The notes under the pieces were generated by a model, which was not told the origin of the DNA, did no database searches, and was given only the letters and a program-made list of their open reading frames with translations. This document shows, in pieces, positions 4,342 through 43,950 of a stretch of DNA of 64,000 bases (position 1 is its first letter; each line of letters begins with the position of its first letter). Position numbers and translations under genes: made by a program. The DNA lies in NCBI GenBank assembly GCA_963741955.1, contig CAVUKB010000010.1, positions 320,001 to 384,000 on the forward strand, in the 5' to 3' direction. Source of the stretch: an uncultured Acidobacteriota bacterium (lineage in GTDB: Bacteria > Acidobacteriota > Thermoanaerobaculia > Gp7-AA8).

Positions 4342-5727
4342 ATGGCGAAAACCGATCAGAAAGCGATCACCTCCGGCGACACCGTCGGTGGAATTCCCAA
4401 CGCCCTGAGGTCTCAGGTGGCGGTCCTCGACGCGGACGGATGGATCGTCTGGACCAATGAGTCGTGGCGGCGTTTCGCGCAGGAAAACTCGACCACCGAC
4501 GGCGCCGCCTATCTCGGATGGAACTACCAGTCCGTCTGTGAGGCGGCTGCTCGATCCGGCGCGTCCCCCGCCGCGGCGGTCCTTCAGGGAATCATGTCCG
4601 TGCGTGCGGGAACGAGCGACGAGTTTTCGCTGGAATACGAATGCCACTCGCCGTCGGCGGAGCGCTGGTTTCTGCTTCGCGTGACGCGTCTCGCGGCCGA
4701 TTCCCCCGGGGCGCTGGTGGTCACGCACGACGACATTACCGAGCGGAGACGGGCGGAGCTCGAATTGAGGGAAGCCGAGCAGAGGCTCCGGAAAGTTCTC
4801 GAGACGCTCCCGGTCGGGGTCTGGATCATGAACCGTGAAGGGATGATCGTTCACGGCAATCCGGCGGGACAGAAGATCTGGGCGGGGGCCCGTTACGTCG
4901 GCCCGGGTGATTTCGGAGAATACAAAGGATGGTGGGTCAGCAGCGGGAAGCCGATCGCCGCGGACGAGTGGGCGGCGGCGCGCGCGATCCGGAACGGTGA
5001 GATCTCCATCGACGAGGAGGTCGAGATCGAGTGCTTCGACGGAAGCCGGAAGATCATTCTCAACTCCGCGATGCCGCTGCTCGACGCGAACGGAAGGACC
5101 TCCGGCGCGATCATCGTCAACCAGGACATCACCCAACGGAAACGTTACGAGAGCGCGCTGCAGCTGGCGAACGAGAAGTTCGAGAGGGCGAATCTCGAAC
5201 TGAAGGAAGCGCTCGCGCGCGAGCATACTCTCGCGGGCCTCGACAGCCTCACCGAAGTGCACAACCGGCGTTACTTCTTCGAGCTCGCCGAGCACGAGCT
5301 CAACGTCGCCACGCGCTACGGTCACGCGATCTCGATCGTTCTGTTCGATATCGATCACTTCAAGGCGGTCAACGATCAATTGGGACACGAGGCGGGAGAC
5401 TACGTGCTGAAAGAGGTCGCCGGGATCATGAAGACGCAGCTTCGCGAGTCGGACGTCCTCGCGCGGTACGGGGGGGAAGAGTTCATCCTCCTGATGCCGA
5501 ACACCCGCGCTGTCGACGCGATGGTGGTCGCGGACCGGATCCGCGAGCGGATCGCTTCCGTGACCATGTTCCTGCGCACCGGAGTCAGCGTGGTGACCGT
5601 CAGTGGAGGCGTGGCCGATACCGAATCGGCGACCGGAGGGCTCGACGCCATCGTACGGGAAGCCGACCGCGCGCTCTATCGCGCGAAGGCAGCGGGGCGT
5701 AACCGCGTGATGATGAACCGGCGTTGA
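4342..5727 (+). CDS. PAS-PAS-GGDEF diguanylate cyclase
   Basis: Two PAS/PAC units (THDDITERR, NQDITQRK), then DSLTEVHNRR, DIDHFKAVND, an RESD I-site, RYGGEEF and ADRALYRAKAAGRNRV. Start placed at MAKTDQ by inference. Confidence 0.93.
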   Translation: MAKTDQKAITSGDTVGGIPNALRSQVAVLDADGWIVWTNESWRRFAQENSTTDGAAYLGWNYQSVCEAAARSGASPAAAVLQGIMSVRAGTSDEFSLEYECHSPSAERWFLLRVTRLAADSPGALVVTHDDITERRRAELELREAEQRLRKVLETLPVGVWIMNREGMIVHGNPAGQKIWAGARYVGPGDFGEYKGWWVSSGKPIAADEWAAARAIRNGEISIDEEVEIECFDGSRKIILNSAMPLLDANGRTSGAIIVNQDITQRKRYESALQLANEKFERANLELKEALAREHTLAGLDSLTEVHNRRYFFELAEHELNVATRYGHAISIVLFDIDHFKAVNDQLGHEAGDYVLKEVAGIMKTQLRESDVLARYGGEEFILLMPNTRAVDAMVVADRIRERIASVTMFLRTGVSVVTVSGGVADTESATGGLDAIVREADRALYRAKAAGRNRVMMNRR

Positions 5728-5730
5728 AGT

Positions 5731-6426
5731 TCATCCGGACTCCTCCACCCTTCGACCCAGCTCCTCGAGCTTCGCGTGGTCCTTCACGATCACTTTTTCC
5801 CGTCCCGATTTCACGATCCCCTCGGCATCCCACGACTTGAGAAGCCGGCTCACCGTGAAGAGGGTCGTGCCGATCATCTCCGCCAGATCCTGGCGCGAGA
5901 GAGTCAGCGCCGGCGAGGCCGATTCGATCCGCTGTTCTTCCAGTTTCACCAGGACCCGCGCCAGCCGCTGCGGCACGGGGATCGTCGCCAGCTCGTGAAA
6001 GCGCTCCTGCAACTCCTGCATCCGCTCGGAGACGATCTTCATCGCATCGACCGCGATCTGCGGATGACGCTCGAGGTAGGGCTGGAGGACCTCTCGCGAC
6101 CAGCCGATGAGCACTGCACCGGTCGTCGCAACCGCGCTGACTGGATAACGGAAGCTGCGCAGCGCAGCGACCACTCCGAACAGCAGACCCGGAGTCATGA
6201 ACGCGACGATCATCTGCTCTCCATCGCGGGTGAGCTTCGAGAGTCGGATCTGTCCTTCCGCGACGATCCACGCCCAGTGGCCTTCATCGCCCTGGTGGAA
6301 AAGGATCTCCCCCGGAACGAGCGTGCGGAGGGTGGTCTGCCGGACGAGCTCGTCGATCTCGCCGGGAGCAAGATGCTCGAAAACAGGGCAGGCTTCCACG
6401 TGTCCTCTGATCGTCGCCGGATCCAC
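5731..6426 (-). CDS. Crp/Fnr family transcriptional regulator, NnrR-like
   Basis: C-terminal part of ORF 5731..8118; GTG at 6426 follows GGGAGA. cNMP-binding fold (GEILFHQGD...GLLFGVVA...YPVSAVA) and HTH LSRQDLAEMIGTTLFTVSRLL. No FNR Cys cluster. Confidence 0.88.
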   Translation of the reverse strand: MDPATIRGHVEACPVFEHLAPGEIDELVRQTTLRTLVPGEILFHQGDEGHWAWIVAEGQIRLSKLTRDGEQMIVAFMTPGLLFGVVAALRSFRYPVSAVATTGAVLIGWSREVLQPYLERHPQIAVDAMKIVSERMQELQERFHELATIPVPQRLARVLVKLEEQRIESASPALTLSRQDLAEMIGTTLFTVSRLLKSWDAEGIVKSGREKVIVKDHAKLEELGRRVEESG

Positions 6427-6468
6427 ATGGACATTCTCCCGTCTCCGCGGTCGCGGAACAACCGTTGA

Positions 6469-6482
6469 TTGACCCGGCGCAA
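6469..6482. promoter_or_regulatory. FNR/NnrR-type binding box TTGAC-N4-CGCAA
   Basis: TTGACCCGGCGCAA(AG) lies in the divergent intergenic region between the Crp/Fnr gene and narK. It fits TTG-N8-CAA, with an NnrR-like CGCAAAG right half. Confidence 0.65.
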
Positions 6483-6699
6483 AGAAGACATTTTCCGGTG
6501 GCTCGATACTGATTGCGACTCCTGTGTCGAGGACTGAAGCGCTCCACTGCCACGAATCGCGACTCGAGTCGTGGCAGCCCGCAAATTCGAGCCATAAGAT
6601 GATCACCGGAATTTCGAATTCTTCATTCCTCTCCAGCCGCCGCATCGGCGGTGAAAGGGGTGACAGTCCCGGTCGAATCTTCTTCTCCGGAGGCGTCAG

Positions 6700-7995
6700 A
6701 TGAGCAGAATCAAGGGGACACCGCGGCAAGGCCTCTTCGCGGCGACCCTCGGCTTTTTCGTCGGCTTTGCAGCCGTCGCGCTGTTCGGTCCCACCGCGAA
6801 ACTCTTCTCCGATCCGCTGCACCTCTCGTCGCTGGCTGCAGGATTTCTGATCGCCATGCCGGCACTCTCGGGCTCTCTTCTCCGGATCCCGTTCTCCGCG
6901 TGGGTCGACACGACCGGAGGCCGCAAGCCATTTCTCGTGCTCCTCACTCTCTCTCTGGTCGGAATGGCGGGCGTTCTCGCGGTGGTCCTCCTCTTCTATC
7001 CGTCGAGGATGACCGGCGCCGTCTACCCGCTGCTCCTCCTTCTCGGCGTCCTCTGCGGATGCGGGATCGCGACTTTCTCCGTCGGGATCAGTCAGGTCGC
7101 GTACTGGTATCCGCAGAAATCGCAGGGACGAGCGCTGGCGATCTTCGCCGGGATCGGAAACGTCGCGCCGGGCATCTTTTCTTTTCTCATTCCGGTGGCG
7201 CTGGTGAGTCTCGGACTGAGTGGTGCCTATCTCGCGTGGCTGATCTTCCTCGCCGCAGGCACCATCGTCTACTTCGCGTTCGGCCGGAATGCCTGGTTCT
7301 TCCAGCTCCGCACGGAGGGAGCGTCGGTCGACGAGGCGAGGAATGAAGCGAAGTCGATGGGACAGGAGCTCTTCCCCGCCGGAAGTCTTCGTGAAAGTCT
7401 CGCTGCATCCGCGAAAGTCTGGAAGACGTGGGCGCTGGTGTCGATCTACTTCACAACCTTCGGCGGGTTCATCGCGCTCACCGCATGGCTGCCGACGTAC
7501 TGGACGCAATATTTCGGGCTGTCGCTCGTCACGGCGGGCCTTCTCACCGGGATCTATTCGGTCCTCACCTCGCTGATCCGGATCGTGGGCGGACTGGTCG
7601 CCGACAAGCTTCGTGAAGGGGGTGAGAACACCGCTGTCCTCGCTCTCCTGGTGATGCTGGTGGGAGCGCTGGTGATGACCATGGCTCGTGAATACGAGCT
7701 CGCCATTCCGGGGATCATTCTTCTCGCCTCCGGAATGGGGATCTGCAACGCGGCGGTGTTCAAGATCGTTCCGCAGGCGGTGCCGCACGCCGTAGGCGGC
7801 GCTGCGGGGTGGGTGGGTGGACTCGGCGCGTTCGGCGGATTCGTCATTCCGCCGATGCTCGGCTTCGCGGTCAGGGATCTCGGTAACCGCGGCTACGCGA
7901 TCGGCTTCATCATCTTCATCTTCCTTGCTCTCTTTTCGCTCGCGATGGCCTGGATGCTCAAGTACATCCCGAATCCCGATGAGGTTCCGACGTGA
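6700..7995 (+). CDS. narK: Nitrate/nitrite transporter (MFS, NarK family)
   Basis: 12-TM MFS pattern with GSLLRIP, FSVGISQVAYWYP..QGRAL..FAGIGN, TTFGGF and GWVGGLGAFGGF; first gene of the nar operon. Confidence 0.92.
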   Translation: MSRIKGTPRQGLFAATLGFFVGFAAVALFGPTAKLFSDPLHLSSLAAGFLIAMPALSGSLLRIPFSAWVDTTGGRKPFLVLLTLSLVGMAGVLAVVLLFYPSRMTGAVYPLLLLLGVLCGCGIATFSVGISQVAYWYPQKSQGRALAIFAGIGNVAPGIFSFLIPVALVSLGLSGAYLAWLIFLAAGTIVYFAFGRNAWFFQLRTEGASVDEARNEAKSMGQELFPAGSLRESLAASAKVWKTWALVSIYFTTFGGFIALTAWLPTYWTQYFGLSLVTAGLLTGIYSVLTSLIRIVGGLVADKLREGGENTAVLALLVMLVGALVMTMAREYELAIPGIILLASGMGICNAAVFKIVPQAVPHAVGGAAGWVGGLGAFGGFVIPPMLGFAVRDLGNRGYAIGFIIFIFLALFSLAMAWMLKYIPNPDEVPT

Positions 7996-8825
7996 GAGCG
8001 CTCGTGCGGGGATCGCTCGTCGTGCTCGCGGCTCTGGCGGTCGGAGCTGCGGCGTGGGGGGAGAGCCCGCCCGGACCGGCGAGTTCCGCGAGTGCGTCAC
8101 CCGCCGCCGCGAACGCACCGGCCGATCCCGCAGCCGACTACTTTCTGGACACCTGCGCCGGGTGCCACACCATCGGGGGTGGAGTACTCACAGGGCCGGA
8201 CCTCCAGAAAGCCACTGCATGGTCAGCGGACGACCTCCATGCCGCAGTCAAGCGGATGGAGAAAAACGTCGGTCCGATGAGCGACGAGCGGGTCAGCGCT
8301 CTGGTGTCCCTCCTGAAGAGCGGCGAGGTTCAGAAGCGGCTCGAGGCGGCGAAGGAGCGACGCAGGGTCGAGCTCACCGCGACACTGGTGCCGGGCTCCC
8401 CCGCGACCGGCCGCGATCTCTTCTTCGGAGCGAAGACCTTCGCCTCCGGCGGAATTCCGTGTGCAGCCTGCCACGCCGTCGGCGGCGAAGGAGGAAACAT
8501 GGCGGTCGACCTCACTGCCGTCTATCCGCGACTCGGCGAACAGTCGCTGATGTCGACCATCGAACGTCCGGCCTTTCCTCTGATGAAGACCGCCTACGGC
8601 GCTCACGTCGTGAGCTCTCAGGAGGCGATGGATCTCTCGGCCTTTTTCAAGTCCGTGGGGAAAGGGCTGCCGCGTGACGCGAGCGTTCCGCCCCGGAATC
8701 TCGCAGCGCTGCACGGAACCGCGGCCGGGCTGGTGATCGTCGCACTCGGCGGTGTGGCGTGGATCTTCCGCTCGCGTCGCGGCGGATTGAGAAGACGGAT
8801 GCTGCGCGACTCGTACAAGAGGTGA
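7992..8825 (+). CDS. narC: Membrane-anchored dihaem c-type cytochrome (NarC-like)
   Basis: Signal peptide; CAGCH (followed by GGGVLTGPDL) and CAACH; C-terminal TM helix with a basic tail; directly upstream of narG. Confidence 0.8.
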   Translation: MRALVRGSLVVLAALAVGAAAWGESPPGPASSASASPAAANAPADPAADYFLDTCAGCHTIGGGVLTGPDLQKATAWSADDLHAAVKRMEKNVGPMSDERVSALVSLLKSGEVQKRLEAAKERRRVELTATLVPGSPATGRDLFFGAKTFASGGIPCAACHAVGGEGGNMAVDLTAVYPRLGEQSLMSTIERPAFPLMKTAYGAHVVSSQEAMDLSAFFKSVGKGLPRDASVPPRNLAALHGTAAGLVIVALGGVAWIFRSRRGGLRRRMLRDSYKR

Positions 8826-8831
8826 ATCGAC

Positions 8832-11800
8832 GTGACCTGGATCCAGGATCTCTTCAGCCCCGAAGCCCGCTCGTGGGAAGACTTCTACCGGAACCGGTGG
8901 TCTCACGACAGAGTCGTCCGCAGCACCCACGGAGTGAACTGCACCGGCGGCTGCAGCTGGAACATCCACGTCAAGCAGGGTCTGGTGACGTGGGAGTACC
9001 AGGCGCTCGACTATCCGCGTTTCGATCCCGACATTCCGTCCTACGAGCCGCGCGGATGCCAGCGCGGGATCTCGCACTCCTGGTACGTCTACAGTCCTCT
9101 GCGGGTGAAGTACCCGTACGTGCGCGGGACTCTCCTCGACCTCTGGAAAGAATCGCTGAAGAAGCACTCCGATCCGATCGCAGCGTGGGAATCACTGGTG
9201 ACCGACGATGCGGCGCGCGCGAAGTGGCAGAAGGCGCGCGGGAAGGGAGGGTTCCGCCGCGCAAGCTGGAACGAAGTGCTGCCGATGCTCGCAGCCGCGA
9301 ACCTCTACACTGCACGACGCCACGGTCCCGACCGGGTGATCGGCTTCTCGCCCATCCCGGCGATGTCGATGGTCAGCTATGCCGCCGGCGCGCGGTATCT
9401 GCAGCTTCTCGGCGGGGTCTGTCTTTCGTTCTACGACTGGTACTGCGATCTTCCTCCCGCCTCGCCGGAGATCTGGGGCGAGCAGACCGACGTCGGGGAG
9501 AGCGCCGACTGGTACAAGTCGCGGTACATCGCGGTAGTCGGCTCCAACGTCCTCGGGACGCGGACGCCCGACGCGCACTTTCTGGTCGAAGCGCGGCATC
9601 AGGGAGCGAAAGTCGTGGTCTTCTCTCCCGATCTCAGTCAGACGTCCAAGGTCGCCGACGAGTGGGTTCCGATCCATCAGGGACAGGACGGCGCGTTCTG
9701 GATGGCGGTCACCCACGTCCTCCTCGAGGAGTTCCACACGAAGAGAACCGTTCCCTACTTCGACGACTATCTCCGCCGATACACGGACGGCCCGTTCCTG
9801 GTCGAGCTCGAGCCGGACGGCCATGGCGGTTATGGTGCCGGATCGCTGCTGCGCAGCTCCGCGCTCCCCGAGTCGAAGGACGAGGAGCTCGGCGAATGGA
9901 AGCTCGTGGTCATCGACGAAGATCTGAAGCTCCGGATGCCGCAGGGGACGGTCGGGCATCGCTGGCAGAAGAAGAAGGGACAGTGGAATCTCGAGTCGCG
10001 CGATGCGCGCAGCGGCGAAGAATACACGCCGCGTCTCACCCTCGCCGGAGCGAGTGACGAGGTCGTCCTCGTCCGGATCGACGACTTTTCGGAGCCGGGG
10101 ACTCCGGGCCTGATCCGGCGCAGCGTTCCCGCTCGACGGATCGAGACGATGGACGGACCGCGGCTCGTCACCACCGCATTCGATCTTCTCCTCGCCCAGT
10201 ACGGCGTCCGCCGCGACCTCGGCGAAGGGCCGGAGGGCGAATGGCCCGAAGGTTACGCCGACGCCGCGCAACCGTTCACTCCTGCATGGCAGGAACAGTT
10301 CACCGGAGTGGCGGCCGCCGACGTGATCCGCTTCGCGCGCGAGTGGGGGAAGACTGCGGAGACGACGAAGGGGCGCTGCATGATCATCATCGGCGCCGGC
10401 GTCAATCACTGGTACCACAACAATCTGATTTACCGCGCCGCCATCACCGCGCTGATGGTCACCGGCTGCATCGGTCGCAACGGCGGCGGTTGGAACCACT
10501 ACGTCGGTCAGGAGAAGCTCGTCCCCGTCGCATCCTGGGCGCCGATTGCGTTTGCGCAGGACTGGGGCGGTCCGCCACGTCTGCAGAACGCGCCGTCGTT
10601 CCACTACATGCACTCGGATCAGTGGCGCTACGACCGTCCGTTCGGCGAAGTCTGTCCGGTCGCCGACGACGGCCAGCCGATGGCGTCCGGCCACACCGCC
10701 GACCTGCAGGCTAAAGCCGTTCGCTGTGGCTGGCTCCCCTGTTATCCGCAGTTCGATCGGACCAACGCGAGCGTTCTCGAAGAGGCGCGTGCGGCAGGTG
10801 AGGATGTCGCGAGTCACGTGGTCGGGCAGCTCCGCCAGCGCAACCTTCGCTTCTCGATGGAGGATCCCGACAACCCCGAGTCGTTCCCACGCGTCTGGTA
10901 CATCTGGCGCGGGAACGCCCTGCAGGCCTCCGCCAAAGGACACGAGTACTTCCTCGAGCACTACCTCGGTACCGACAGCGCTTCGGTCGCGGCGGAGGAA
11001 GGGGAGGGATTCGTCGAGGACGTCGTCTGGCGCGACGTCGCGGCAAAGGGGAAGCTCGACCTGGTCGTCGACCTGAACTTCAGGATGGACACCTCCGCCC
11101 TCTACTCCGATGTCGTCCTCCCCGCCGCCTCGTGGTACGAGAAGGACGACCTCAACTCGACGGACCTCCACAGCTTCATCCATCCACTCCAGCGCGCGAT
11201 CACCCCCTGCTGGGAGTCGAAGAGCGACTGGCAGATCTTCCGCGAGCTCGCCCGGGTGACCCAGGAGATCGCACAGGAGTGGATGCCTGACCCCTTCGAG
11301 GATCTCGTCCTCACCCCTCTGATGCACGACACCGCCGCTGAAGTCGCGCAGCCGGACGTGCGTGACTGGGCGAAGGGAGAGTGCGAGCCGGTTCCCGGAA
11401 AGACGATGGCGAACATCACCGTCGTCACCCGTGACTACGCGAATCTCTACAACCGGTTCGTCTCCCTGGGGCCGAAATTCCGAGACGGCGGACTCGGCGC
11501 GCACGGTACGAAGTATCCGGTCGACGATGTGTACGACCGCTGGCGCGAGATTCACGCGGTCGAAAAGTGGGATGGCGAGACGTATCCCTCTCTGCGCGAA
11601 GACCGCTCCGTCTGTGACACCATTCTCCGTTTCGCGCCGGAGACGAACGGCGAGCTCGCGTGGCGGGCGTTCCGCTCCGAGTCGGAGAAGACCGGTCGCG
11701 ACCACACCCATCTCGCGGAGAAGACCCGTGGCGTGACGTACAGCTTCGACGATCTGGTGCGCCAGCCTCGTCGAGTCCTCACCTCCCCGTACTGGACCGG

Positions 11801-12473
11801 CATCACGGGCGACGGCCGTACGTACGCGGCATTCTGTCAGAACGTCGAAGAGCTGATCCCGTGGCGCACCCTCACCGGACGGCAGCATCTCTATCTCGAC
11901 CACCAGGTCTACCGGGCCTTCGGCGAGCACCTCCCGACCTTCAAACCGCGCCCGGACCAGAGGGCGCTCGGCGATCTCGAACAAACCCCCGCCGACCATC
12001 GTTCGCTGGTCCTCAACTACCTCACCCCTCACGGGAAGTGGCATATTCACTCCACGTACGGCGACACGCTCCGGATGGAGACGCTCTCCCGCGGCATCGA
12101 GCCGATCTGGATGAACGACCGCGACGCGGGACTCCTCGGGATTCGCGACAACGACTGGGTCGAGGTGCTGAACGACCACGGCGTCGTCGTCACCCGCGCG
12201 TGCGTCAGCGCACGCATCCCGCGCGGAATGTGCTTCATCTACCACGCGACGGAGCGGACCATCGGAACGCCGAAGACGACCACTCGACTTCGTAACGGAA
12301 AACCGCGGCGCGCCGGCGCGCACAACAGTCTGACCCGGGTGCGGCTCAAGCCGGTGTTCATGATCGGCGGGTACGCGCAGTTCACGTACGCATTCAACTA
12401 CTGGGGGCCGCCCGGCGTGAACCGGGACACCTACGTCGTGGTTCGCAAGACGGAGAGGAAACCCGAATGGTGA
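8832..12473 (+). CDS. narG: Respiratory nitrate reductase alpha subunit (cytoplasm-facing, no Tat leader)
   Basis: [14 protein letters not shown] (FS0), [57 protein letters not shown]; 1213 aa. Confidence 0.97.
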
Positions 12474-12487
12474 GCTCGAACGGAGAA

Positions 12488-13992
<1,505 letters not shown>

Positions 13993-13996
<4 letters not shown>

Positions 13997-14553
13997 GCGC
14001 GGTGGACGTGGAACCGCTTTGTCTGGGAGTGGAGACACTCGGCGTGCTGTCGCCTCTCTTCCGGTATCCGGCAGAGGGATACGCGCGTGCTCTCGACTTT
14101 GCGCGCGTTTTCGAGACGGAGATCGACGCGGCTGCAGGAAGCGCGCTCGCTCGATTCGCCGCAGAGATCGAGCCGCTCAGTCGAGGCCAGCTCGAGTCGA
14201 CGTACACCCACACCTTCGATCTCGCGCCGTCGTGCAGCCCGTACCTCGGCGCGCACCTCTTCGGTGACGAGACGCCGGATCGCGCGCGGCTGATGGTGGG
14301 CCTCCGGATGACGTACCGGAACCACGGGATCGACGTCGACGGGCGTGAACTGCCGGACCACGTCGCGGAGGTGCTCGAACATGCGCGCTGCTTCGAAGGC
14401 GCAGAGTGGTTCGAGCTCGGAAGGCTGATCCTGATTCCCGCGCTCGATCGGATGACGGCGATTCTCGAATCAACGACGAATCCGTACCGGCATCTCCTCG
14501 ACGCGACCCGGCGAGTGGCTCGGACACTTTTCGAAGAAGGAGGTCTATCGTGA
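13993..14553 (+). CDS. narJ: Nitrate reductase molybdenum cofactor assembly chaperone
   Basis: ATGA overlap with the narH stop; LFRYP, YTHTFDL..SPYLG.HLFG, ELPDHV, NPYR motifs. Confidence 0.9.
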
Positions 14554-15878
14554 CCGGCGCCCCGATCGAAAACCTCCTTCTCACCGGGATTCCCTACGCC
14601 GCGATCGTCGTCTTCATCGCCGGGATGTTCTGGCGGATTCGATCGCAGTTCTCGATCTCATCGCTCTCCTCGCAGTTTCTCGAAAGTCGATGGCTCGTCT
14701 GGGGCTCGGTCCCGTTTCACCTCGGGATCACCATCCTGTTCATCGGACATCTGATTCCGGTCATCATCCCGGGGGCGTGGAAAGTACTCGTCTCGAATGC
14801 CTCGTTCCGCATCGCCGTGGAGAGCGTCGGACTCGGCGCGGCGGTACTCACCCTGATCGGGCTGCTCGTCCTCTTCGTGCGTCGGATCACTTCGCGGACG
14901 GTGCAGCCGAATTCGACGGTGATGGATCTGGTGGTGCTCGGAATCCTGATCTTTCAGGTCGCGGTGGGAACGGGAGTGGCGGCGCTTCACCGGTGGGGAT
15001 CACTCTGGTCGGTGGGAACGACCACGCCGTACCTCTGGAGTCTCCTCACCCTCCACCCCGATCCGGCCCTGGTCGGCGGGATGCCGCCTCTGATGCAGCT
15101 CCACCTCACAGGCGCGTGGGTGGTGCTCGCGCTGATCCCGTTCACCCGCCTCGTGCACATGTTCTCCCTCCCTCTGCAGTACCTTGCCAGACCGCCGCAG
15201 CGCGTGATCTGGGCGAGCGCTCGAAGACGTCTCGCGGACGAGCGGCGTGAGGAACGGGACGTTGCGGGACGGCGTCTCCTCCTGAGGGGCGCGGTCGGTG
15301 TGGGAGCCGCGGGCGTCCTTCTCTCCATCGGTGTCGCCGACAAACTCTTCAACTACTTCCGCGGCCCGCAGATGACGCTGGACGAAGAAGCCGCGCTCCT
15401 CAAGAAACGACTCGGCCGGCTCGAAGCGACGACCGAGCAGCGGCAGCTCGAGCTCGAGCGGATGCGGAAGTCGTACATCCGCGTCGCGCGTCTCGGCGAT
15501 CTCTCACGCGACACCGGCTTCTACTTCGTCGATTACCAGATGCGGCCGGCGCTCGCGTTCCGGAACGCCGAGGGTCTGCCCCACCTGATCTCGGCCAAGT
15601 GCACGCACCTCGGGTGCACGGTGGCGAAGGACGTCGACCCGGAAGGACGGATCGTCTGTCCGTGCCACATCTCGTACTTCAACGTCGCGACCGGCGTCCC
15701 GCAGCCGGGATCGCCGGCCAAGGCGCCGCTTCCGATGCTCGGCTGGGTGCTGCGCGAGCCTCAGGGCGGCATCGTCGCGAAGAGAACCGCCGACGGACGG
15801 ATGGAGGGGAAGATCGATCCGGCGGTGCTCGACGACTACGAAGTGTGGATCTCGCGCGAGATGGAGGTTCAGGCCTGA
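14550..15878 (+). CDS. narI: Nitrate reductase gamma subunit (NarI) fused to a C-terminal Rieske [2Fe-2S] domain
   Basis: GTG at 14550 follows GGAGG. NarI motifs SSLSSQFLE, PFHLGI..IGH and QLH..PFTRLVH give four haem His. These are followed by GRRLLLRG plus a TM helix, a helical linker, and Rieske boxes CTHLGC and CPCH, all in one frame. Confidence 0.88.
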   Translation: MTGAPIENLLLTGIPYAAIVVFIAGMFWRIRSQFSISSLSSQFLESRWLVWGSVPFHLGITILFIGHLIPVIIPGAWKVLVSNASFRIAVESVGLGAAVLTLIGLLVLFVRRITSRTVQPNSTVMDLVVLGILIFQVAVGTGVAALHRWGSLWSVGTTTPYLWSLLTLHPDPALVGGMPPLMQLHLTGAWVVLALIPFTRLVHMFSLPLQYLARPPQRVIWASARRRLADERREERDVAGRRLLLRGAVGVGAAGVLLSIGVADKLFNYFRGPQMTLDEEAALLKKRLGRLEATTEQRQLELERMRKSYIRVARLGDLSRDTGFYFVDYQMRPALAFRNAEGLPHLISAKCTHLGCTVAKDVDPEGRIVCPCHISYFNVATGVPQPGSPAKAPLPMLGWVLREPQGGIVAKRTADGRMEGKIDPAVLDDYEVWISREMEVQA

Positions 15879-16978
15879 TGCCGACACGATTCCAGGCGGC
15901 GACCGCATTCCTCTCCGAGCGCCTTCCGCTCGAGAAGATGAGCGTGCGCTCGCTCATCACCACCAAGATGGTGCCGGTCCACCGCATGAGCTGGGCCTAC
16001 TACCTCGGCGGACTCACGCTCTTCTTATTCATGGTCCAGATGGTGACGGGCCTGATGCTCCTCTTCTATTACGAGCCGACGGTCAGTGATGCGCACGCAT
16101 CGGTCGAGAGGATCACCGAGCACGTGGTCGGTGGTGGGCTGGTGCGGAATCTTCACACCTGGGCCGCGTCGGCCATGATTCTGATGGTGCTCGCGCACAT
16201 GATCACCACCTTCGCGATGAAGGCGTTCGACAAACCGCGCGAGATCACCTGGCTGAGTGGAGTGACTCTGCTTCTTCTCGCGTTCGGATTCGGGTTCACC
16301 GGTTACCTTCTGCCGTGGCACCAGATCGCGGTCAATGCGACCAAGGTGGGACTGCAGTCGATCGAAGACGTCGGGCAATACCTCCCGACGGCGATCGCCA
16401 CCTGGCCTACCCGGCTCCGGGAGCTCATCCAGGGCGAACCGGCGGTGGGACAGGCCACGCTCTCGCGTTTCTACGCCATCCACGTCGTCGTCCTCCCGCT
16501 GGTGTTCCTCGGGTTAGTCGGGCTCCACCTTCTCTCCGTGCAGCTTCACGGCATGAGCCGCGGAGTCGACCGGCCGACGGACCGCACCGAGCGCTTCTTC
16601 CCGTTCTTCATCCTCAAGGATTTCTGGGTGTGGGGCGTGGCGTTCCTGGCGATCTTCACCCTCGCTCTCACGCTGCCGTTCGAATCGTTCTTTCAATATC
16701 CCCTTTTCGAGGCCTACAACGCGATGGGCTCGACGCCGGACGGGATCAAGCCGGAATGGTATTTCTACTTCGTCTACTATCCGCTCGAGCTGCTCCCGTT
16801 CTGGGTGGTGGGGCTCCTGATGAACGGCGCGATCGTCACGCTGTTCGTCTCACCCTGGATCTTCAAAGGGACCAAACGACGGACTCTACAGACGCTCGCG
16901 GTGATCGCGACGACGTACCTCGTGGTGATGACGCTCTTCGGGGGTCAGATCTACAGCGTCTTCCGAGGAGGCAAGTGA
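15878..16978 (+). CDS. Cytochrome b subunit of a Rieske/cytochrome b (bc-type) complex
   Basis: TGATG coupling to narI-Rieske; YYLGG, RNLHTW...LAH, TGYLLPW, TLSRFYAIH...LH, and the Qo motif IKPEWYF. Confidence 0.93.
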   Translation: MPTRFQAATAFLSERLPLEKMSVRSLITTKMVPVHRMSWAYYLGGLTLFLFMVQMVTGLMLLFYYEPTVSDAHASVERITEHVVGGGLVRNLHTWAASAMILMVLAHMITTFAMKAFDKPREITWLSGVTLLLLAFGFGFTGYLLPWHQIAVNATKVGLQSIEDVGQYLPTAIATWPTRLRELIQGEPAVGQATLSRFYAIHVVVLPLVFLGLVGLHLLSVQLHGMSRGVDRPTDRTERFFPFFILKDFWVWGVAFLAIFTLALTLPFESFFQYPLFEAYNAMGSTPDGIKPEWYFYFVYYPLELLPFWVVGLLMNGAIVTLFVSPWIFKGTKRRTLQTLAVIATTYLVVMTLFGGQIYSVFRGGK

Positions 16979-17634
16979 TGCGCGCGCGTCTGCTCGGCGC
17001 GATGACCTTGGCGCTGTTGGTCTCTGCGAACGCCTGGGCTTATCCCGAGTTCCAGACCTGGATCTCGAAGCACTCCGGCCATTCCGTCGACTGCGCGATG
17101 TGCCACGTGAATCCGGAGGGGCCGGAGGGATTGGGGGAGGGGCAGATCAGGGGTCTCGACCGTCAGGAGCTCGAACGGCTGAACGACGCGCGTGCGGCGT
17201 TTCAGCCCGGGATCAGGATCGACAGTCCGATCCTGAACGAATTCGGGAATCGCATCATCGAACGGCTCGGACGGAAGGAGTTTCTGGAGATCCGAGTGAC
17301 GGATCCGGGGCGGCTGGTTGCGAAGTACGGCTTCGAATCCGATCTCGACGGCGACGGGATCCCCGACGCACAGGAGTATCTCGACGGGACGCTTCCGATC
17401 GACCCGCGGAGTGGCGATCCATGGCTGCTGTTCGCGCATAATCTCGGCCGCCGATGGCTCGACCTCCTGATGGTGATCCTCGCTACGCTGTGCGGGCTCT
17501 TCGGTCTCAACCAGATGCTCCACTGGTTCGAATTCGCGTCGCGCGAAGAAGAGACCGCGGATGCGACGGTGGACGAACGACATCCCCGGCCGCGCCGCCG
17601 CCCCACCCGCGCACGGACTTCGATTTCGAGCTGA
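16978..17634 (+). CDS. Membrane-anchored monohaem c-type cytochrome-like protein with a DxDxDG loop
   Basis: TGATG coupling to cyt b; signal peptide ...SANAWA; CAMCH; DLDGDGIPDAQE; C-terminal TM helix. Confidence 0.7.
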   Translation: MRARLLGAMTLALLVSANAWAYPEFQTWISKHSGHSVDCAMCHVNPEGPEGLGEGQIRGLDRQELERLNDARAAFQPGIRIDSPILNEFGNRIIERLGRKEFLEIRVTDPGRLVAKYGFESDLDGDGIPDAQEYLDGTLPIDPRSGDPWLLFAHNLGRRWLDLLMVILATLCGLFGLNQMLHWFEFASREEETADATVDERHPRPRRRPTRARTSISS

Positions 17635-22225: not shown

Positions 22226-22459
22226 CGAGTCACCCCTCCACTTGTTACGGAATCATAACTCCCCCCTCTTCCGTCAAAACTCCCGGATCGCGTATCCTTT
22301 GAGCGGGACGTTTCATCGGACTTCCGTGGAGGGGCGAACGGGGCGGTCTGAGGCAGGCCGGTCTCATCCTCCAATCGGGAATCCCGACGATTCATTACGG
22401 CAAGGTCCGCGGTCAGAGCACGATCCAATCAACCGGAGTACCGCAGTCGAGGTGTCTTT

Positions 22460-23584
22460 ATGAAGAAACGCATGTTTCTGATGCTTTCGGTCGTCGTCGT
22501 CTTCATCGGAGCGGTGGGAGGGTTCAAGTTCCTGCAGATCCGCGATGCGATGGCGCAGGGTGCGGCCTATCAGCCGCCTCCCGAAGCGGTGACCACGATC
22601 GTCGCGCACCAGGAGCAGTGGGCCGACAAGCTCAAGGCGATCGGAACGGTCGTCGCGGTGAACGGGGTCGACGTCAGCGCCGATCTCCCCGGTGTGGTCG
22701 AGCAGATTCATTTCGAATCGGGCCGTCCGGTGGAGAAGGGGTCGGTCCTCGTCACGCTCGACACGCGCCAGGAGCGCGCCCAGCTCGCGGCTGCGGTCGC
22801 GGAGCGCGACCGGCTCGCGGTCGATCTGAGACGCGCGCAGGAGATGCTCACCAGCGCGGTGATCCCGCAGTCGACCTACGATTCGGTGGCCGCGCAGTCG
22901 AAGCAGGCGATTGCCAGAGTCGGCGAGATCGAAGCGACCATCGCCCGCAAGACCATCCGCGCTCCGTTCTCCGGAGTCCTCGGGATCCGCAAGGTCAACC
23001 TCGGCCAGTACCTCTCCGGCGGCGAGGCTATCGTCTCCCTCCAGTCGCTCCGCCCCGCCTACGTCGAGTTCGACGTCCCCCAGCAGGATCTCGCCAAGCT
23101 GAAGATCGGCGGTGAGGTCGAAGCGACCACCGAGTCGATCGGTTCAGTGGAGAGTGGAAGGATCACCGCCTACGATTCGCGGATCGACCCGGTGACGCGA
23201 AACGTCCGGGTCCAGGCGAGCTTCGACAACCGCTCCGGCAACCTTCATCCCGGGATGTTCGTCGACGTTCACCTTTCGGCGGGTACGAATGTGGCGGTCA
23301 TCCCGCTCCCGTCGTCCGCGATCAGCTACGCGCCATTCGGAAACTCGGTGTACATCGTGGAGAACGTCAAGGGTGAGGACGGCAAGTCGTATCGAGGCGT
23401 GCGCCAGCAGTTCGTGAAGACCGGCGCCTCGCGCGGCGATCAGGTGGCCGTTCTTTCCGGCGTGAAACCGGGGGAGGAGGTCGTGACCTCGGGGGCGTTC
23501 AAACTTCGCCCCGGAGCGGCGGTGATCGTGAACAACCAGGTCCAGCCGTCGAACAATCCTTCGCCCAATCCGGCAGACAGCTGA
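22460..23584 (+). CDS. RND efflux periplasmic adaptor (MexH/MexV-like)
   Basis: N-terminal TM; lipoyl halves G.VEQIHFESG..VEKG and IRAPFSGVLG; L.PGMFV; GEEVVTSG. Confidence 0.92.
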   Translation: MKKRMFLMLSVVVVFIGAVGGFKFLQIRDAMAQGAAYQPPPEAVTTIVAHQEQWADKLKAIGTVVAVNGVDVSADLPGVVEQIHFESGRPVEKGSVLVTLDTRQERAQLAAAVAERDRLAVDLRRAQEMLTSAVIPQSTYDSVAAQSKQAIARVGEIEATIARKTIRAPFSGVLGIRKVNLGQYLSGGEAIVSLQSLRPAYVEFDVPQQDLAKLKIGGEVEATTESIGSVESGRITAYDSRIDPVTRNVRVQASFDNRSGNLHPGMFVDVHLSAGTNVAVIPLPSSAISYAPFGNSVYIVENVKGEDGKSYRGVRQQFVKTGASRGDQVAVLSGVKPGEEVVTSGAFKLRPGAAVIVNNQVQPSNNPSPNPADS

Positions 23585-23625
23585 GTCAGGGTCAGCTCTG
23601 CAGTTTCGAAGATCGGACGTGACGC

Positions 23626-26600
23626 ATGAAAATCACTGATCTCTTCGTCCGCCGCCCGGTACTCGCCGTGGTGGTGAACCTGGTCATCCTCATCGGCGGC
23701 CTTCAGGCCGTTCGCTCGCTGACCGTACGCCAGTTCCCGCGCAGTGACATGGCGAACGTCGTCGTACGCACCGTCTACATCGGCGCGAACGCCGATCTGG
23801 TGCGCGGCTTCATCACCGCGCCGCTCGAGCGGGCCATCGCCGGCGCCGACGGGATCGACTTCATGGAGTCTTCGAGCGCGCAGGGGATGAGCACCATCAC
23901 GGTGCACCTGAAGCTCAACTACGACACCAACGCCGCTCTCACCCAGATCCAGGCGAAGGTCGCCCAGGTGCGCAATCAGCTTCCCCCTGAAGCCGAGGCG
24001 CCGGTGATCGACCTGCAGACGACGGACAGCCAGTTCGCCTCCGGGTACCTCGGCTTTTCTTCAAAAGAGCTCGACCAGAACCAGATCACCGACTACCTGA
24101 CTCGCGTCGTCCAGCCGAAGCTGAGCGCGATCGCCGGCGTCCAGCGCGCAGAGATCTTCGGGGACCGGACTTTCGCCATGCGGGTCTGGCTCAAGCCCGA
24201 CCGGATGGCGGCACTCGGCATCTCTCCCTCCGAGGTCCACGACGCGCTCGCGGCGAACAACTATCTGTCGGCACTCGGAGCGACGAAGGGATCGATGACG
24301 TCGATCAACCTCGTCGCGAACACGAACCTCCAGACCGCCGACGAGTTCCGCAAGCTGGTGGTAAAGGAACGGAATGGGACGGTGATCCGTCTCGGCGACA
24401 TCGCCGACGTGGTGCTCGGCGCCGAGACGTACGACAGCGAAGTTCGCTTCAACGGACAGACCGCGGTCTTCATCGGGATCTACCCGCTGCCGACCGCGAA
24501 CACGCTCGACGTGATGAAGGCGGTCCGCGCTGAGATTCCCGAGATCCGGGCACAGCTTCCGGCCGGAATGAGCATCGGCGTTCCGTACGACTCCTCGGAG
24601 TACATCCAGTCGGCGATCGACGAGGTTCTCAAGACGCTGACGGAGACGCTCCTCATCGTCGTGCTGGTGATCTTCCTCTTCCTCGGCAGCGTCCGGGGAT
24701 TGATCATCCCGGTGGTCGCGATTCCGGTCTCGCTGATCGGCGCGGTCCTCCTGATGATGATCTTCGGCTTCACCATCAACCTTCTGACGCTCCTCGCGAT
24801 CGTCCTATCCGTCGGGCTGGTCGTCGATGATGCGATCGTGATGGTGGAGAACATCGAGCGGCATCTCCACATGGGAAAGACGCCGATGCAGGCGGCGGCC
24901 GACGCGGCGCGCGAGCTGGTCGGTCCGGTCATCGCGATGACCATCACCCTCGCCACGGTGTACACGCCGGTCGCACTGCAGGGGGGGCTGACCGGTTCGC
25001 TTTTCCGCGAATTCGCGTTCACCCTCGCGGGCGCGGTGCTGATCTCCGGATTCGTAGCCCTGACCCTCTCTCCGATGATGGGATCGAAGCTGCTGCGCGA
25101 AGGCGACACCGAGCGCGGCTTTGCGGGGATGATCAACCGTCACTTCGAGGTGGTGCGGCGGCTTTATACGCGGCTCCTCACCGGAACGCTGAAGTACCGG
25201 CCGGTAGTCTTCACCCTCTGGATCATCGTCGTCGCCCTGGCGATTCCCTTCTACATGTTCTCCCAGAAGGAGCTCGCTCCTCCGGAGGATCAGAACTTCA
25301 TCTTCGGCATCATTCAGGCAGCTCCGAACGCGACGCTCGACCAGACCAAGCTCTTCGCGCATCAGGTGGACGACATCTACCGCGCACAGCCGGAGTACAA
25401 GGCGACGTTTCAGGTGGTCACCCCGAACGGCGGCTTCGGCGGGATGGCGATGAAGCCTCTCGAGGAGCGGTCCCGCGGAGTGCAGCAGGTTCAGGTCGCT
25501 GTCTCGAACGCCACGTCGAAGATCCCCGGGATCCGTTCGATCCAGCTGATTCCTCCGTCACTCCCCGGCGGTGAAGGATTCCCGGTCGACTTCGCAATCG
25601 TTTCGACCGCCGAGCCGGAGCAGCTCGCGGAGTTCGCAAACCAGCTGGTGCAGAAGGCGTACACGAGCGGGAAGTTCATGTTCGTCGATACGGACCTGAA
25701 GTTCGACCAGCCGCAGGCGAAAGTGGTTTTCGACCGCGACAAGCTCCGCGCGCAGGGAGTCGACATGTCTCAGGTCGGACGCGACCTCTCCGTACTCCTC
25801 GGCGGGAACTACGTGAACCGCTTCAGTATCCAGGGACGCAGCTACAAGGTCATCCCGCAGGTGAAGCGCGCCGACCGCCTCACGCCCGACCAGCTCGAGC
25901 AGATCTACGTCACCGGGGGAAACGGGAAGCTCGTTCCGCTCTCGACGTTCGCCACGCTGGAGACCTCGACCCAACCTCGCGAGCTGAAGCGCTTTCAGCA
26001 GCTCAATGCGGTGCGGATCCAGGGAGCGATCCCGCCGGGCGTTTCGCTCGACGACGCTCTCTCGTATCTCGAGGAGCAGGCGCGCGAAATTCTGCCGCGC
26101 GGCTACTCCATCGACTACGCGGGCGAGTCGCGACAGTTGCGCACTGAGGGGAACAAGTTTCTCGGCGTGTTTCTCCTCTCGGCGATTCTGATCTATCTCG
26201 TACTCGCGGCGCAGTTCGAGAGCTTCCGCGATCCGCTGATCATCCTCGCGGGCTCGGTCCCGCTCGCGATCTCCGGATCGCTCCTCTTCTCGTTCCTCGG
26301 GCTCACGTCGATCAACATCTACAGCCAGATCGGTCTGATCACGCTGGTCGGACTGATCTCGCGCAACGGCATTCTGATCGTCGAATTCGCGAATCACCTT
26401 CAGGAGACGGGGAAGGCGAAGATCGCGGCGGTGATCGAGGCGGCGGGAACTCGGCTCCGGCCGATTCTGATGACCACGGCGGCGACTGTCGCTGGCCATC
26501 TCCCGCTCGTCTTCGCACGCGGTCCGGGAGCCGGAGCGCGCAACAGCGTCGGCATCATGCTGGTGACGGGAATGATGATCGGGACCTGCTTCACGCTGTT

Positions 26601-26718
26601 CGTCGTGCCGTCGATCTACGTCCTTCTCGCGCGGACGCATCGCGCCGACGAGATCGAGGAGATCGCCACGGAGTCGGAACCGGAGATCGGTCCCGACCTC
26701 GAGCCCTCTACGGTGTAG
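23626..26718 (+). CDS. RND efflux permease (MexI/MexW-like)
   Basis: 1030 aa; FVRRPVLA, SVGLVVDDAIVMVENI, RNGILIVEFAN, RLRPILMTT. Confidence 0.95.
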   Translation: MKITDLFVRRPVLAVVVNLVILIGGLQAVRSLTVRQFPRSDMANVVVRTVYIGANADLVRGFITAPLERAIAGADGIDFMESSSAQGMSTITVHLKLNYDTNAALTQIQAKVAQVRNQLPPEAEAPVIDLQTTDSQFASGYLGFSSKELDQNQITDYLTRVVQPKLSAIAGVQRAEIFGDRTFAMRVWLKPDRMAALGISPSEVHDALAANNYLSALGATKGSMTSINLVANTNLQTADEFRKLVVKERNGTVIRLGDIADVVLGAETYDSEVRFNGQTAVFIGIYPLPTANTLDVMKAVRAEIPEIRAQLPAGMSIGVPYDSSEYIQSAIDEVLKTLTETLLIVVLVIFLFLGSVRGLIIPVVAIPVSLIGAVLLMMIFGFTINLLTLLAIVLSVGLVVDDAIVMVENIERHLHMGKTPMQAAADAARELVGPVIAMTITLATVYTPVALQGGLTGSLFREFAFTLAGAVLISGFVALTLSPMMGSKLLREGDTERGFAGMINRHFEVVRRLYTRLLTGTLKYRPVVFTLWIIVVALAIPFYMFSQKELAPPEDQNFIFGIIQAAPNATLDQTKLFAHQVDDIYRAQPEYKATFQVVTPNGGFGGMAMKPLEERSRGVQQVQVAVSNATSKIPGIRSIQLIPPSLPGGEGFPVDFAIVSTAEPEQLAEFANQLVQKAYTSGKFMFVDTDLKFDQPQAKVVFDRDKLRAQGVDMSQVGRDLSVLLGGNYVNRFSIQGRSYKVIPQVKRADRLTPDQLEQIYVTGGNGKLVPLSTFATLETSTQPRELKRFQQLNAVRIQGAIPPGVSLDDALSYLEEQAREILPRGYSIDYAGESRQLRTEGNKFLGVFLLSAILIYLVLAAQFESFRDPLIILAGSVPLAISGSLLFSFLGLTSINIYSQIGLITLVGLISRNGILIVEFANHLQETGKAKIAAVIEAAGTRLRPILMTTAATVAGHLPLVFARGPGAGARNSVGIMLVTGMMIGTCFTLFVVPSIYVLLARTHRADEIEEIATESEPEIGPDLEPSTV

Positions 26719-37658: not shown

Positions 37659-37764
37659 ATCGCGCGCGATGCGCAAATTCATGTTGCCGTGACCAACATC
37701 CAGGCGGGCTCGACGCGTGCCCGCCGGACCGAAGCCCTCGCGCCAACGAAACGTTCCGTCCTGT

Positions 37765-38184
37765 TCGCGACCGTCGTCGTGTCGATCTCGTCCATCGGAT
37801 CGTACGTCCAGTGCCACGTCGCGCCATCCGCACGGATCTCCTCGAAGAGGTTCCCGTGCTCGTCGTAGTGATACGTCGTCACATTTCCTCGGGCGTCTTC
37901 GAGCGTCTCCAGACGGTCCGCGTCGTCGTACGTGTACGTCGTGACCGCTCCCTCCGCGTCCGTTTCCTTGACGCGGTTCCCTCGGAGATCATAGTCGCTC
38001 TTCGTCTCCCGCCCCTCCGGGTCCGTCTTCTTGACGAGATGCCCGCGCGTGTCATACAGGAAGATGGTGACGAGCGGCCGGTCCGGATCGCTCATGTCGA
38101 TCGACATCGCCAGCCGGTTCTGCGCGTCGTACTCGAAGCGCGTGAGGTAAGTGTCGGTGGTTCCGTCAGGCCGCTTCTCAATGC
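37765..38184 (-). pseudogene. Rhs/YD-repeat fragment 1
   Basis: FEYDAQNRL..YDTRGHL..TDPEG..YDLRGNR..YDDADRL..YDEHGNL; largely matches 42700-42965. Confidence 0.8.
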
Positions 38185-38273
38185 AGCCCTCGATCGTCCG
38201 CCTTTTCGCGCTCCGCGACACAGCGCCTTTGCGCCCGACCGATCGCGATTGGATTCACAATGAGGGTCGGATG

Positions 38274-41446: not shown

Positions 41447-41659
41447 CGGTGGGTGAGATTAGCATGAGAGGCCAGGCACGCTGAGGGCCCCACTTCGCTC
41501 GGGCCGAACTACGTTGCCCAGGATGATTGGCAAGCTGCGCGCATCCCGACCGAGACACTGGCACGAGGTCGCAGCTGGCGATGAAGAGCGCGAACGTAAC
41601 TCCCGCAGCATCAGTCGATTGCTACCAGTTCCGAGACGCGAAGCTCTGACCCCAGGCTT

Positions 41660-43938: not shown

Positions 43939-43950
43939 AGGGAAGGGGGA

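Follow-up and report, generated by a model that had tools for sequence, protein, structure and literature searches.

In a 64,000-nucleotide stretch of a contig from an uncultured Acidobacteriota soil bacterium (GCA_963741955.1, CAVUKB010000010.1, positions 320,001 to 384,000; hereafter the window), eight genes on the + strand between positions 6700 and 17634 encode a respiratory nitrate reductase (Nar) in which the membrane subunit NarI runs, within a single polypeptide, into a Rieske iron–sulfur domain of the kind found in bc complexes, with genes for a cytochrome b and a monohaem cytochrome c directly downstream. The fusion is genuine and under selection, and the seven-gene set around it—narC, narG, narH, narJ, narI::Rieske, cytochrome b, and monohaem cytochrome c—is conserved as a unit across many phyla. 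We give an even chance to the reading that this operon encodes a hard-wired quinol:nitrate oxidoreductase supercomplex, in which electrons would run in series through the Rieske/cytochrome b part and the reductase, with a Q-cycle. The initial annotation had placed and identified the same eight genes, and its positions and identities are borne out by coordinates and family matches (Table 1).

A conserved fusion of NarI with a Rieske domain

The 14550-15878 product had been read at the outset as a NarI that keeps four haem histidines and continues in frame into a Rieske domain, and profile scans of the kind then proposed recover both parts. PF02665 matches residues 8-221 (E 9e-56, model positions 2-216 of 217) and PF00355 matches residues 311-393 (E 1e-7), while the protein as a whole scores 113.8 on TIGR00351, for which the cut-off is 105.55. 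Both Pfam domains were found in each of the best 120 of 560 homologues (438-479 aa plus one fragment); the fusion homologues are annotated merely as 'respiratory nitrate reductase subunit gamma'. Across 113 aligned fusion proteins, the NarI haem ligands (H57, H67, H185, and H203), the Rieske cluster ligands (C351, H353, C370, and H373), and the disulfide cysteines (C356 and C372) are invariant, and the CTHLxC and CPCH boxes are present in every one. A genome scan using one genome per species recovered at least 453 stretches that encode a relative of the fusion, of which the best 80 loci were analysed. The match spans residue 15 or earlier to residue 391 or later in 78 of these 80, the other two ending at contig edges. 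An Atlas search for fusion homologues returned a sole cluster, its own.

These counts bear on the concern, raised in the initial annotation, that a stop codon had been lost between two separate genes. That a sequencing or assembly error deleted such a stop is, in our estimate, next to impossible: stand-alone Rieske relatives do exist, yet they sit in loci without nar genes, and we found no evidence in support of the error. The fused frame recurs in the homologues and independent loci just described, and the linker between the two domains itself holds invariant residues, which together refute this explanation. A Logan contig—a second assembly of the probable source sample, built from the same data and so not independent—also shows 0 differences over 15002-16100. 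A fused frame kept across many genomes thus rules out a lost stop codon or chance.

A search for the same fusion and gene order, as first suggested, showed that among the best 80 loci the order held wherever it could be checked. Scored over loci whose flank was long enough, every partner occupied its expected position—narJ in 73/73, narH in 63/63, narG in 53/53, narC in 52/52, cytochrome b in 72/72, and the monohaem cytochrome c after cytochrome b in 68/68. The conserved seven-gene set includes no gene for a soluble carrier or an acceptor. All 80 loci come from metagenome-assembled genomes (MAGs), which span more than 12 phyla and are labelled Melainabacteria (16), Verrucomicrobiota (15), Hydrogenedentota (9), Acidobacteriota (7), Planctomycetota (6), and at least 10 further names. 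Some of these phylum labels are probably errors of binning or naming. The module was also seen in MAGs labelled Rickettsiales and Alphaproteobacteria, and the NarG sequences of one locus labelled Clostridia (L053) and another labelled Blastocatellia (L075) are near-identical, with end branches of 0.014 and 0.018.

We placed these NarGs in a FastTree phylogeny of 71 rows, which left out loci without a match of at least 1100 aa and two loci with internal stops, and which carries Shimodaira–Hasegawa-like support only and an assumed Thermus root. All 55 bc-linked NarGs fell, together with two that lack bc genes, into one clade with support of 100; those linked to alternative complex III (ACIII) fell into two other clades of the tree. 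In a 201-genome sample of the window's class, NarI was found in 19 genomes and was fused in the window's alone. Two long frames around NarI in that sample (521 aa in G225 and 414 aa in G080) were examined as candidate fusions and rejected, tblastn matching the NarI part only and ACIII genes lying after it.

The reductase core, the bc unit, and the polypeptide that joins them

Homology assigns the Nar core to the Thermus NarCGHI type, its dihaem cytochrome c being a NarC homologue, a point absent from the initial annotation. NarG, NarH, NarJ, and NarI each pass curated equivalog models (TIGR01580, TIGR01660, TIGR00684, and TIGR00351). NarG had been described as having no leader for twin-arginine translocation (Tat), and indeed its N-terminus, MTWIQDLF..., contains no twin arginine, with the narG model aligned from position 27 onward. 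It is 59% identical to Thermus thermophilus NarG over the full length, and the alignment starts at residues 3 and 4, so that the two share the same short N-terminus; the N-terminal NarJ-binding extension, absent from Thermus NarG (PMC10609526), is missing from the window's NarG too. The NarI domain is 40% identical to Thermus NarI and 29% identical, as aligned, to E. coli NarI (PDB chain match, E 7e-19), with H57, H67, H185, and H203 of the fusion aligned to E. coli H56, H66, H187, and H205. For the dihaem cytochrome c, the sole matches in the plasmid collection were narC genes of 13 Thermus thermophilus plasmids, and a BLASTP comparison of its second haem domain with T. thermophilus NarC gave 41% identity over 103 aa (E 4e-19). 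Two CxxCH motifs occur in 48/48 NarC-like homologues, and C55/C58/H59/M89 and C157/C160/H161/M198 are invariant. Its transmembrane (TM) segment lies at residues 237-255; both c-type cytochromes of the operon are TM-anchored.

Periplasm-facing Nar of haloarchaea is encoded in an operon with NarB (Rieske) and a NarC that is a cytochrome b, has a Tat-exported NarG, and lacks NarI; the window, with a leaderless NarG and a full NarI, is not a member of that group. The arrangement instead resembles Thermus narCGHJIKT in gene order (narC-narG-narH-narJ-narI with narK), in the divergent Crp/Fnr gene, and in cytoplasmic orientation, narC in Thermus standing directly before narGHJI-narK. There, however, NarI is an unfused protein of 229 aa, and its gene is not followed by genes for a Rieske protein, a cytochrome b, or an additional cytochrome c. 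According to a review (PMC7694296), Thermus Nar replaces a repressed complex III, whereas the window has a complex III built in. The same text describes a strong two-hybrid interaction between Thermus NarC and NarI, a requirement for NarC in maturation, and a role for it in electron transfer that is 'not well defined', with a proposed function as a bridge to the nitrite and NO reductases (Nir/Nor) while complex III is repressed (PMC7694296).

In the bc part, the best solved match of the cytochrome b is cytochrome b6 (E 5e-46). Its haem ligands (His93/107/202/217) are present in 72/72 sequences and the PEWY motif in 71/71, while the position of the haem-ci cysteine, which marks b6f and Firmicute forms, holds Leu in the window, Phe in 60/72, and Cys in 4/72. 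The best solved relatives of the Rieske domain are the Thermus and b6f/bc1 Rieske proteins. It has both boxes typical of bc1 and b6f Rieske proteins, CTHxGC and CPCH, with their disulfide cysteines, and a twin arginine before the TM helix. This Rieske subfamily is narrow—703 matches among 1.84 billion cluster representatives, 29 of them at E of 1e-10 or below and 16 at 1e-30.

The monohaem cytochrome c is presumed, by analogy of position and anchoring, to be the c1/f-equivalent subunit of the bc part, although Pfam and NCBIfam searches detected no homology to cytochrome c1 or f. One CxxCH is present in 69/69 homologues and the C-terminal TM segment lies at residues 163-181. An Atlas search gave weak leads to Temptin_C and TSP3_bac. 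Some further features of this protein may be recorded here. A YP[EQ][FY] motif occurs in 58/70 sequences (window and homologues) around what we read as the expected signal-peptide cleavage site, and a Y/F-P-x-aromatic motif stands 17 residues before CxxCH wherever found (59 sequences). We saw no conserved Met or His that could serve as sixth ligand, a situation that recalls the N-terminal amino ligand of cytochrome f, to which no homology was detected. A DxDxDG motif of calcium-binding type is invariant.

The bc unit is also found without Nar. Among the Rieske relatives are three stand-alone representatives of about 225 aa; at five loci of one of these (P0247), the Rieske gene is followed by a cytochrome b 61-65% identical to the module's, and a module-type monohaem cytochrome c (42-45%) comes next in the four loci that reach that far, with no nar gene in a flank of up to 6 kb. 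Such free-standing clusters lie on metagenome contigs (L136 at 5538-8356, also L137 and L140-L142); L136 has a small cytochrome c gene upstream and genes for a histidine kinase and a response regulator downstream. Since the Nar core and the bc unit each exist alone, the module joins two complexes. The joined Nar–bc assembly proposed in the initial annotation is, accordingly, the natural reading of a conserved fusion that always comes with cytochrome b and monohaem cytochrome c, and would take the form of a supercomplex.

[quoted passage not shown] It differs in that its terminal enzyme is an aa3 oxidase rather than Nar and the extra Rieske helices are not a haem protein; the window's cytochrome b, unlike the actinobacterial one, is b6-like with a fused subunit IV part.

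The fusion polypeptide would itself have to cross between these two insertion routes. Its twin arginine, R241-R242, is invariant in 113/113 fusion proteins and stands right before the last TM helix (TM6), beyond which the cofactor-binding domain begins—the arrangement of proteins targeted by both Sec and Tat. The stand-alone Rieske relatives start with the same twin arginine and TM helix, as an ordinary N-terminal Tat signal-anchor. Linker residues 215-245 are net positive (9 K/R vs 5 D/E), and on the Kyte-Doolittle scale TM6 scores 1.82, against 2.05-2.52 for TM1-4 and 1.74 for TM5, with K265 and R271 after TM6. The C-terminus of E. coli NarI is cytoplasmic, and this, with an N-in/C-out TM6, would put the Rieske domain on the periplasmic side, where all bc complexes have it. 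We infer that the five NarI helices are inserted by Sec and that TM6 and the folded Rieske domain then follow by Tat, a handover that would set the cluster beside the Qo site; the tether at residues 267-308 looks helical in sequence. To our knowledge, few membrane proteins are inserted jointly by Sec and Tat, and the fusion is a candidate for this rare class. Polytopic actinobacterial Rieske proteins inserted by Sec and then Tat have been described (Tooke et al. 2017, PMC5449189); in the available text of that paper NarI is mentioned 0 times.

A separate feature of NarC-type NarIs is a conserved periplasmic loop at residues 148-170 (HRWG.xWS..T.TPYLWS.LTL.P), which, together with an invariant Glu91, is common to fused, ACIII-linked, and Thermus NarIs and is not found in E. 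coli NarI. The loop and Glu91 may form a docking site for NarC or a different quinol site.

Electron flow and its alternatives

Textbook NarGHI oxidises quinol itself, independently of complex III. In the supercomplex to which we give an even chance, menaquinol would instead be oxidised at the Qo site of cytochrome b. One electron would pass via the b haems to a quinone-reducing Qi site, as in a Q-cycle, while the other would travel from the Rieske cluster to the monohaem cytochrome c, both haems of NarC, and NarI's distal haem, then across the membrane to NarH and finally NarG and nitrate. NarI would thus serve mainly as a transmembrane wire fed by c haems, not as a quinol oxidase, with a predicted yield of about 4 charges, rather than 2, for every 2 electrons.

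A precedent for this route has been proposed for Streptomyces coelicolor Nar1 (Falke et al. 2021, PMC7931247), where a dihaem cytochrome c is suggested to feed NarI haem bD with the Q-cycle working, at 4 H+ vs 2 H+ and over a menaquinol-to-nitrate span of about 505 mV. Like the window, where this is predicted from sequence, Nar1 is a cytoplasmic NarGHI that apparently does not work as a classical quinol oxidase, and it co-purifies with bcc components (PMC7931247). The Streptomyces genes are separate and unlinked, the association is possibly transient, and there is no NarC; in the window the link is covalent and encoded in one operon.

Another parallel, which the initial annotation did not contain, lies within the window's class, where, in 15 cases, an unfused narC-narGHJI operon has genes for ActB and ActC behind it on its own strand (L117, L118, L121-L128, and L130-L134; narC-narGHJI(-narK)). 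Three of these loci, inspected in detail, carry the full ActABCDEF followed by a gene for hemerythrin, a major facilitator superfamily (MFS) transporter, or an Rrf2 regulator; no oxidase gene follows ACIII in these three. The exceptions in the class are L116, L119, L120, and L129 (too short) and L115 (convergent on its neighbour's ACIII). The ACIII-linked loci are kin, and their count overstates independence. An ACIII-like cluster after nar has been reported in 13 instances from Planctomycetota/KSB1 MAGs, where the authors consider a possible new nitrite reductase or respiratory-chain component (PMC10732223). These loci resemble the window in having a membrane-bound Nar directly upstream of a module of quinol:cytochrome c oxidoreductase type, and differ in having ActABCDEF instead of Rieske/cytochrome b and an unfused NarI. 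That quinol:cytochrome c oxidoreductases of two unrelated kinds occupy one operon position suggests that NarC-type Nar is paired with that activity.

One alignment column bears on the proposed role of NarI as a wire. Lys86 of E. coli NarI, which Bertero et al. in 2005 are said to have found necessary for quinol oxidation, corresponds to window position 86; NarC-type NarIs align without gaps between an invariant His-x6-Pro and Glu91-x2-Gly94, and 112 of the 113 aligned fused NarIs matched this anchor pattern. In these 112 the column holds Phe (63), Ala (15), Val (12), Leu (6), Ile (6), Arg (4), Gly (3), Met (2), or Ser (1), with Phe in the window, and Ala and Gly in the two bc-less sisters. Thermus and 17/18 non-bc NarC-type NarIs have Arg there, the remaining one giving no pattern. 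Judged from the alignment, the basic residue at this column has been lost in the clade of fused NarIs, and the 'two quinol-oxidising modules' of the initial annotation are therefore doubtful. The structure of a K86A variant is among the PDB chain matches.

Several observations weigh against the series path. The change at the Lys86 column alone need not abolish function, since 106/120 short unfused NarIs, of unknown context, also lack Arg or Lys there; and Arg84 occurs in 48/113 fused proteins (any K/R at positions 82-88 in 63/113). ACIII-linked NarIs keep Arg at the column, so that the ACIII parallel needs no NarI devoid of a quinol site. With the haem potentials of E. coli, an electron passing from the c haems to haem bD of NarI would move locally uphill. 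In L115 and L116, whose NarGs come closest to the window's (77-80% identical), NarI is unfused, bc genes are missing, and narC-narGHJI is intact, which looks, from the sequences, like a single secondary loss. Finally, Thermus NarCGHI works with bc repressed, and its NarC is proposed to take electrons out of Nar, not into it (PMC7694296). As to L115 and L116 themselves, a decayed fusion was considered and rejected, reading past the narI stop having given no linker or Rieske remnant. Each of their genomes carries two nar operons about 10-15 kb apart (L115/L126 in G140:C3, L116/L123 in G050:C40), one of the bc clade without Rieske, cytochrome b, or cytochrome c, and the other ACIII-linked.

Part of this evidence fits the main alternative, unlikely but substantial, in which NarI would stay the quinol oxidase for nitrate and Rieske/cytochrome b would be a second, more efficient one that passes electrons to the anchored c haems of cyc1 and NarC. 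From there they would go on to other periplasmic acceptors such as NrfA, unknown nitrite or NO reductases, or oxidases, with the fusion securing only co-assembly and 1:1 stoichiometry. The bc-less NarCGHJI of Thermus and of the window's nearest relatives, and Arg84 where it occurs, agree with it, as does the report that Thermus NarC is needed for growth on nitrite and NO and may be a bridge to Nir/Nor (PMC7694296).

Acceptors that the c haems could serve were searched for in 34 carrier genomes, for which completeness is known for the home genome alone (99.1%). NrfA is present in 17/34, a count that tells against the series path and for this alternative. NirS matches pass the Pfam cut-off in 12/34, the best scoring 47 bits and covering no more than 215 of 368 positions; we read these as other propeller proteins, and no full-length NirS was found in the 34. 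NirK was above cut-off in 0/34 (best 190 bits) and NosZ was found in 1/34, while the home genome has no NirS, NirK, NosZ, or NrfA. The absences in G001-G033 are soft, completeness not being given, and a cytochrome c-dependent NO reductase was not searched for. That NirS, NirK, and NosZ are nearly absent speaks against electrons branching off to denitrification enzymes. A quinol dehydrogenase of its own normally serves NrfA, the two aa3-type (A-type) oxidases of the home genome each lie beside their own ACIII (C4:315982-322206 and C7:1219401-1224736), additional cytochrome b genes for general use occur in 27/34 carriers, and the lack of a soluble carrier or acceptor gene in the conserved set points the same way. 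Between the two options of the initial annotation, an added Q-cycle or a split of electrons toward Nir/Nor/Nos, the evidence thus favours the first and speaks against the second. In four carriers (G025, G019, G010, and G024), full-length NrfA matches contain one or two in-frame TGA/TAG codons. The home genome also has three more Rieske/cytochrome b pairs (G000 C5:234240-235160, C6:274692-275654, and C7:15522-16498), in one of which an open frame of 1024 aa surrounds cytochrome b, and a haem-copper oxidase of 760 aa without NCBIfam match (G000 C10:431916-433253) that we guess to be a quinol-dependent NO reductase.

Less probable still, indeed improbable, is co-assembly without any electron exchange, with NarI as an extra anchor for the Rieske domain, the enzymes independent, and the bc part used for general anoxic or microoxic respiration. 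Additional helices are known to anchor the polytopic Rieske proteins of actinobacteria (PMC5449189), and in the 7/34 carriers where the module's cytochrome b is the sole one found it could perhaps belong to the general bc complex. Mere anchoring, however, sits poorly with a strict seven-gene synteny that includes NarC and the anchored cytochrome c in more than 12 phyla, with the monophyly of the bc-linked NarG clade, with a Lys86-equivalent that changed in step with the fusion, and with ACIII in the same operon position in relatives. The reverse direction—a Nitrobacter-type nitrite oxidoreductase (NXR) passing electrons out through NarI and NarC, partly backwards through bc to the quinone pool—is very improbable: nitrite oxidisers do need reverse flow through complex III, yet NarG scores above the narG equivalog cut-off, narK and a divergent Crp/Fnr gene accompany the operon as in Thermus nitrate respiration, and we know of no nitrifiers among the carrier lineages (Acidobacteriota, Verrucomicrobiota, Melainabacteria, Hydrogenedentota, and others). 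In its favour, the Nitrobacter NXR cluster resembles Thermus nar and has a NarC homologue as electron exit (PMC7694296).

If the Q-cycle-coupled supercomplex is the right reading, its reach would be wide. With a little less than even confidence, we propose a widespread class of complex III–Nar 'nitrate respirasomes' in menaquinone-using bacteria of more than 12 phyla, in which NarI would be a wire without quinol oxidation, fed by the Q-cycle via three anchored c haems, with a doubled charge yield; taken with the ACIII-linked nar operons, the general rule would be that NarC-type Nar is cytochrome c-fed and paired in cis with a quinol:cytochrome c oxidoreductase, and the fusion would found a new Sec-Tat family (five Sec helices, one Tat). 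That hundreds of species keep the fusion alongside its cytochrome b and cytochrome c provides genomic evidence for nitrate reduction being able to couple to a Q-cycle; about 4 instead of 2 charges per 2 electrons would, if true, challenge the textbook view of NarGHI and affect energy-yield estimates, the carriers being abundant uncultured lineages of soil, freshwater, and wastewater. A Q-cycle-linked Nar has been hypothesised so far just for Streptomyces spores (PMC7931247), and the module offers a defined obligate system in which to test that idea and the role of NarC. The concept of a Q-cycle-coupled Nar and the nar–ACIII linkage are already in print, while the covalent, operon-encoded Nar–bc unit and its breadth appear new; the fusion, suspected from the start to be undescribed, met with no description in the literature searched, in which subscription journals were mostly outside coverage.

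The operon in its window

Table 1. Genes of the nar–bc operon, segments of the NarI::Rieske polypeptide, and the divergent regulator, in window coordinates
Feature	Position	Strand	Basis and remarks
Crp/Fnr-family regulator, divergent	5731-6450	-	PF00027 + PF13545 + PF00325
narK-type MFS nitrate/nitrite transporter	6700-7995	+	MFS_1 PF07690, E 8e-30; TIGR00886 170.7 bits, below cut-off 311.7
NarC homologue, periplasmic dihaem cytochrome c	7992-8825	+	CAGCH + CAACH, signal peptide, C-terminal TM, PF13442 + PF00034
narG, catalytic molybdenum-bis(pyranopterin guanine dinucleotide) (Mo-bisPGD) subunit, cytoplasmic	8832-12473	+	TIGR01580 1521 bits vs cut-off 1084
narH, Fe-S subunit	12467-13996	+	TIGR01660 638.7 bits vs 524
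narJ chaperone	13993-14553	+	TIGR00684 68.7 bits vs 59.35; ATG after GAGGAGG
narI::Rieske, 442 aa	14550-15878	+	GTG start preceded by GAAGGAGG
NarI domain of fusion	14550-15212	+	residues 1-221, five TM helices (hydropathy), four haem-b His
Cytoplasmic linker + TM6 (predicted internal Tat signal-anchor)	15213-15347	+	R241-R242 at nt 15270-15275; TM6 residues 244-266, Gly/Ala-rich
Conserved tether, TM6 to Rieske fold	15348-15473	+	residues 267-308; conserved columns L291, E303, R304
bc-type Rieske [2Fe-2S] domain, predicted periplasmic	15474-15878	+	CTHLGC ... CPCHISYF; PF00355
Cytochrome b, 366 aa, b6-like N-terminal half + subunit-IV-like half	15878-16978	+	PF00033 + PF00032, PEWY, seven TM helices
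Monohaem cytochrome c, 218 aa	16978-17634	+	CAMCH, C-terminal TM; no Pfam/NCBIfam match

The ends of adjacent open reading frames in the operon overlap by 1-7 nt or are separated by a gap of 6 nt, and the genes are translationally coupled; the 3' neighbours are unrelated genes. The divergent Crp/Fnr-family regulator is a probable anaerobic activator of the nar operon. A search for FNR-like sites gave 17 matches vs 11.4 expected, none of them upstream of narK, and hence no FNR box above chance; promoter-like sites (1 vs 1.1 expected) and terminator-like sites (9 vs 6.6 expected) likewise did not exceed chance. Among sequencing runs carrying the locus, the probable source sample was the sole match, and no RNA run was among those listed. 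Elsewhere, and unrelated to nar, the window holds RHS-repeat fragments, a phage-related DUF5131 gene, and a resistance-nodulation-division (RND) efflux pair, HlyD + AcrB, with coordinates 37679-38254 (-), 41459-42901 (-), 43939-44682 (+), and 22352-26718 (+).

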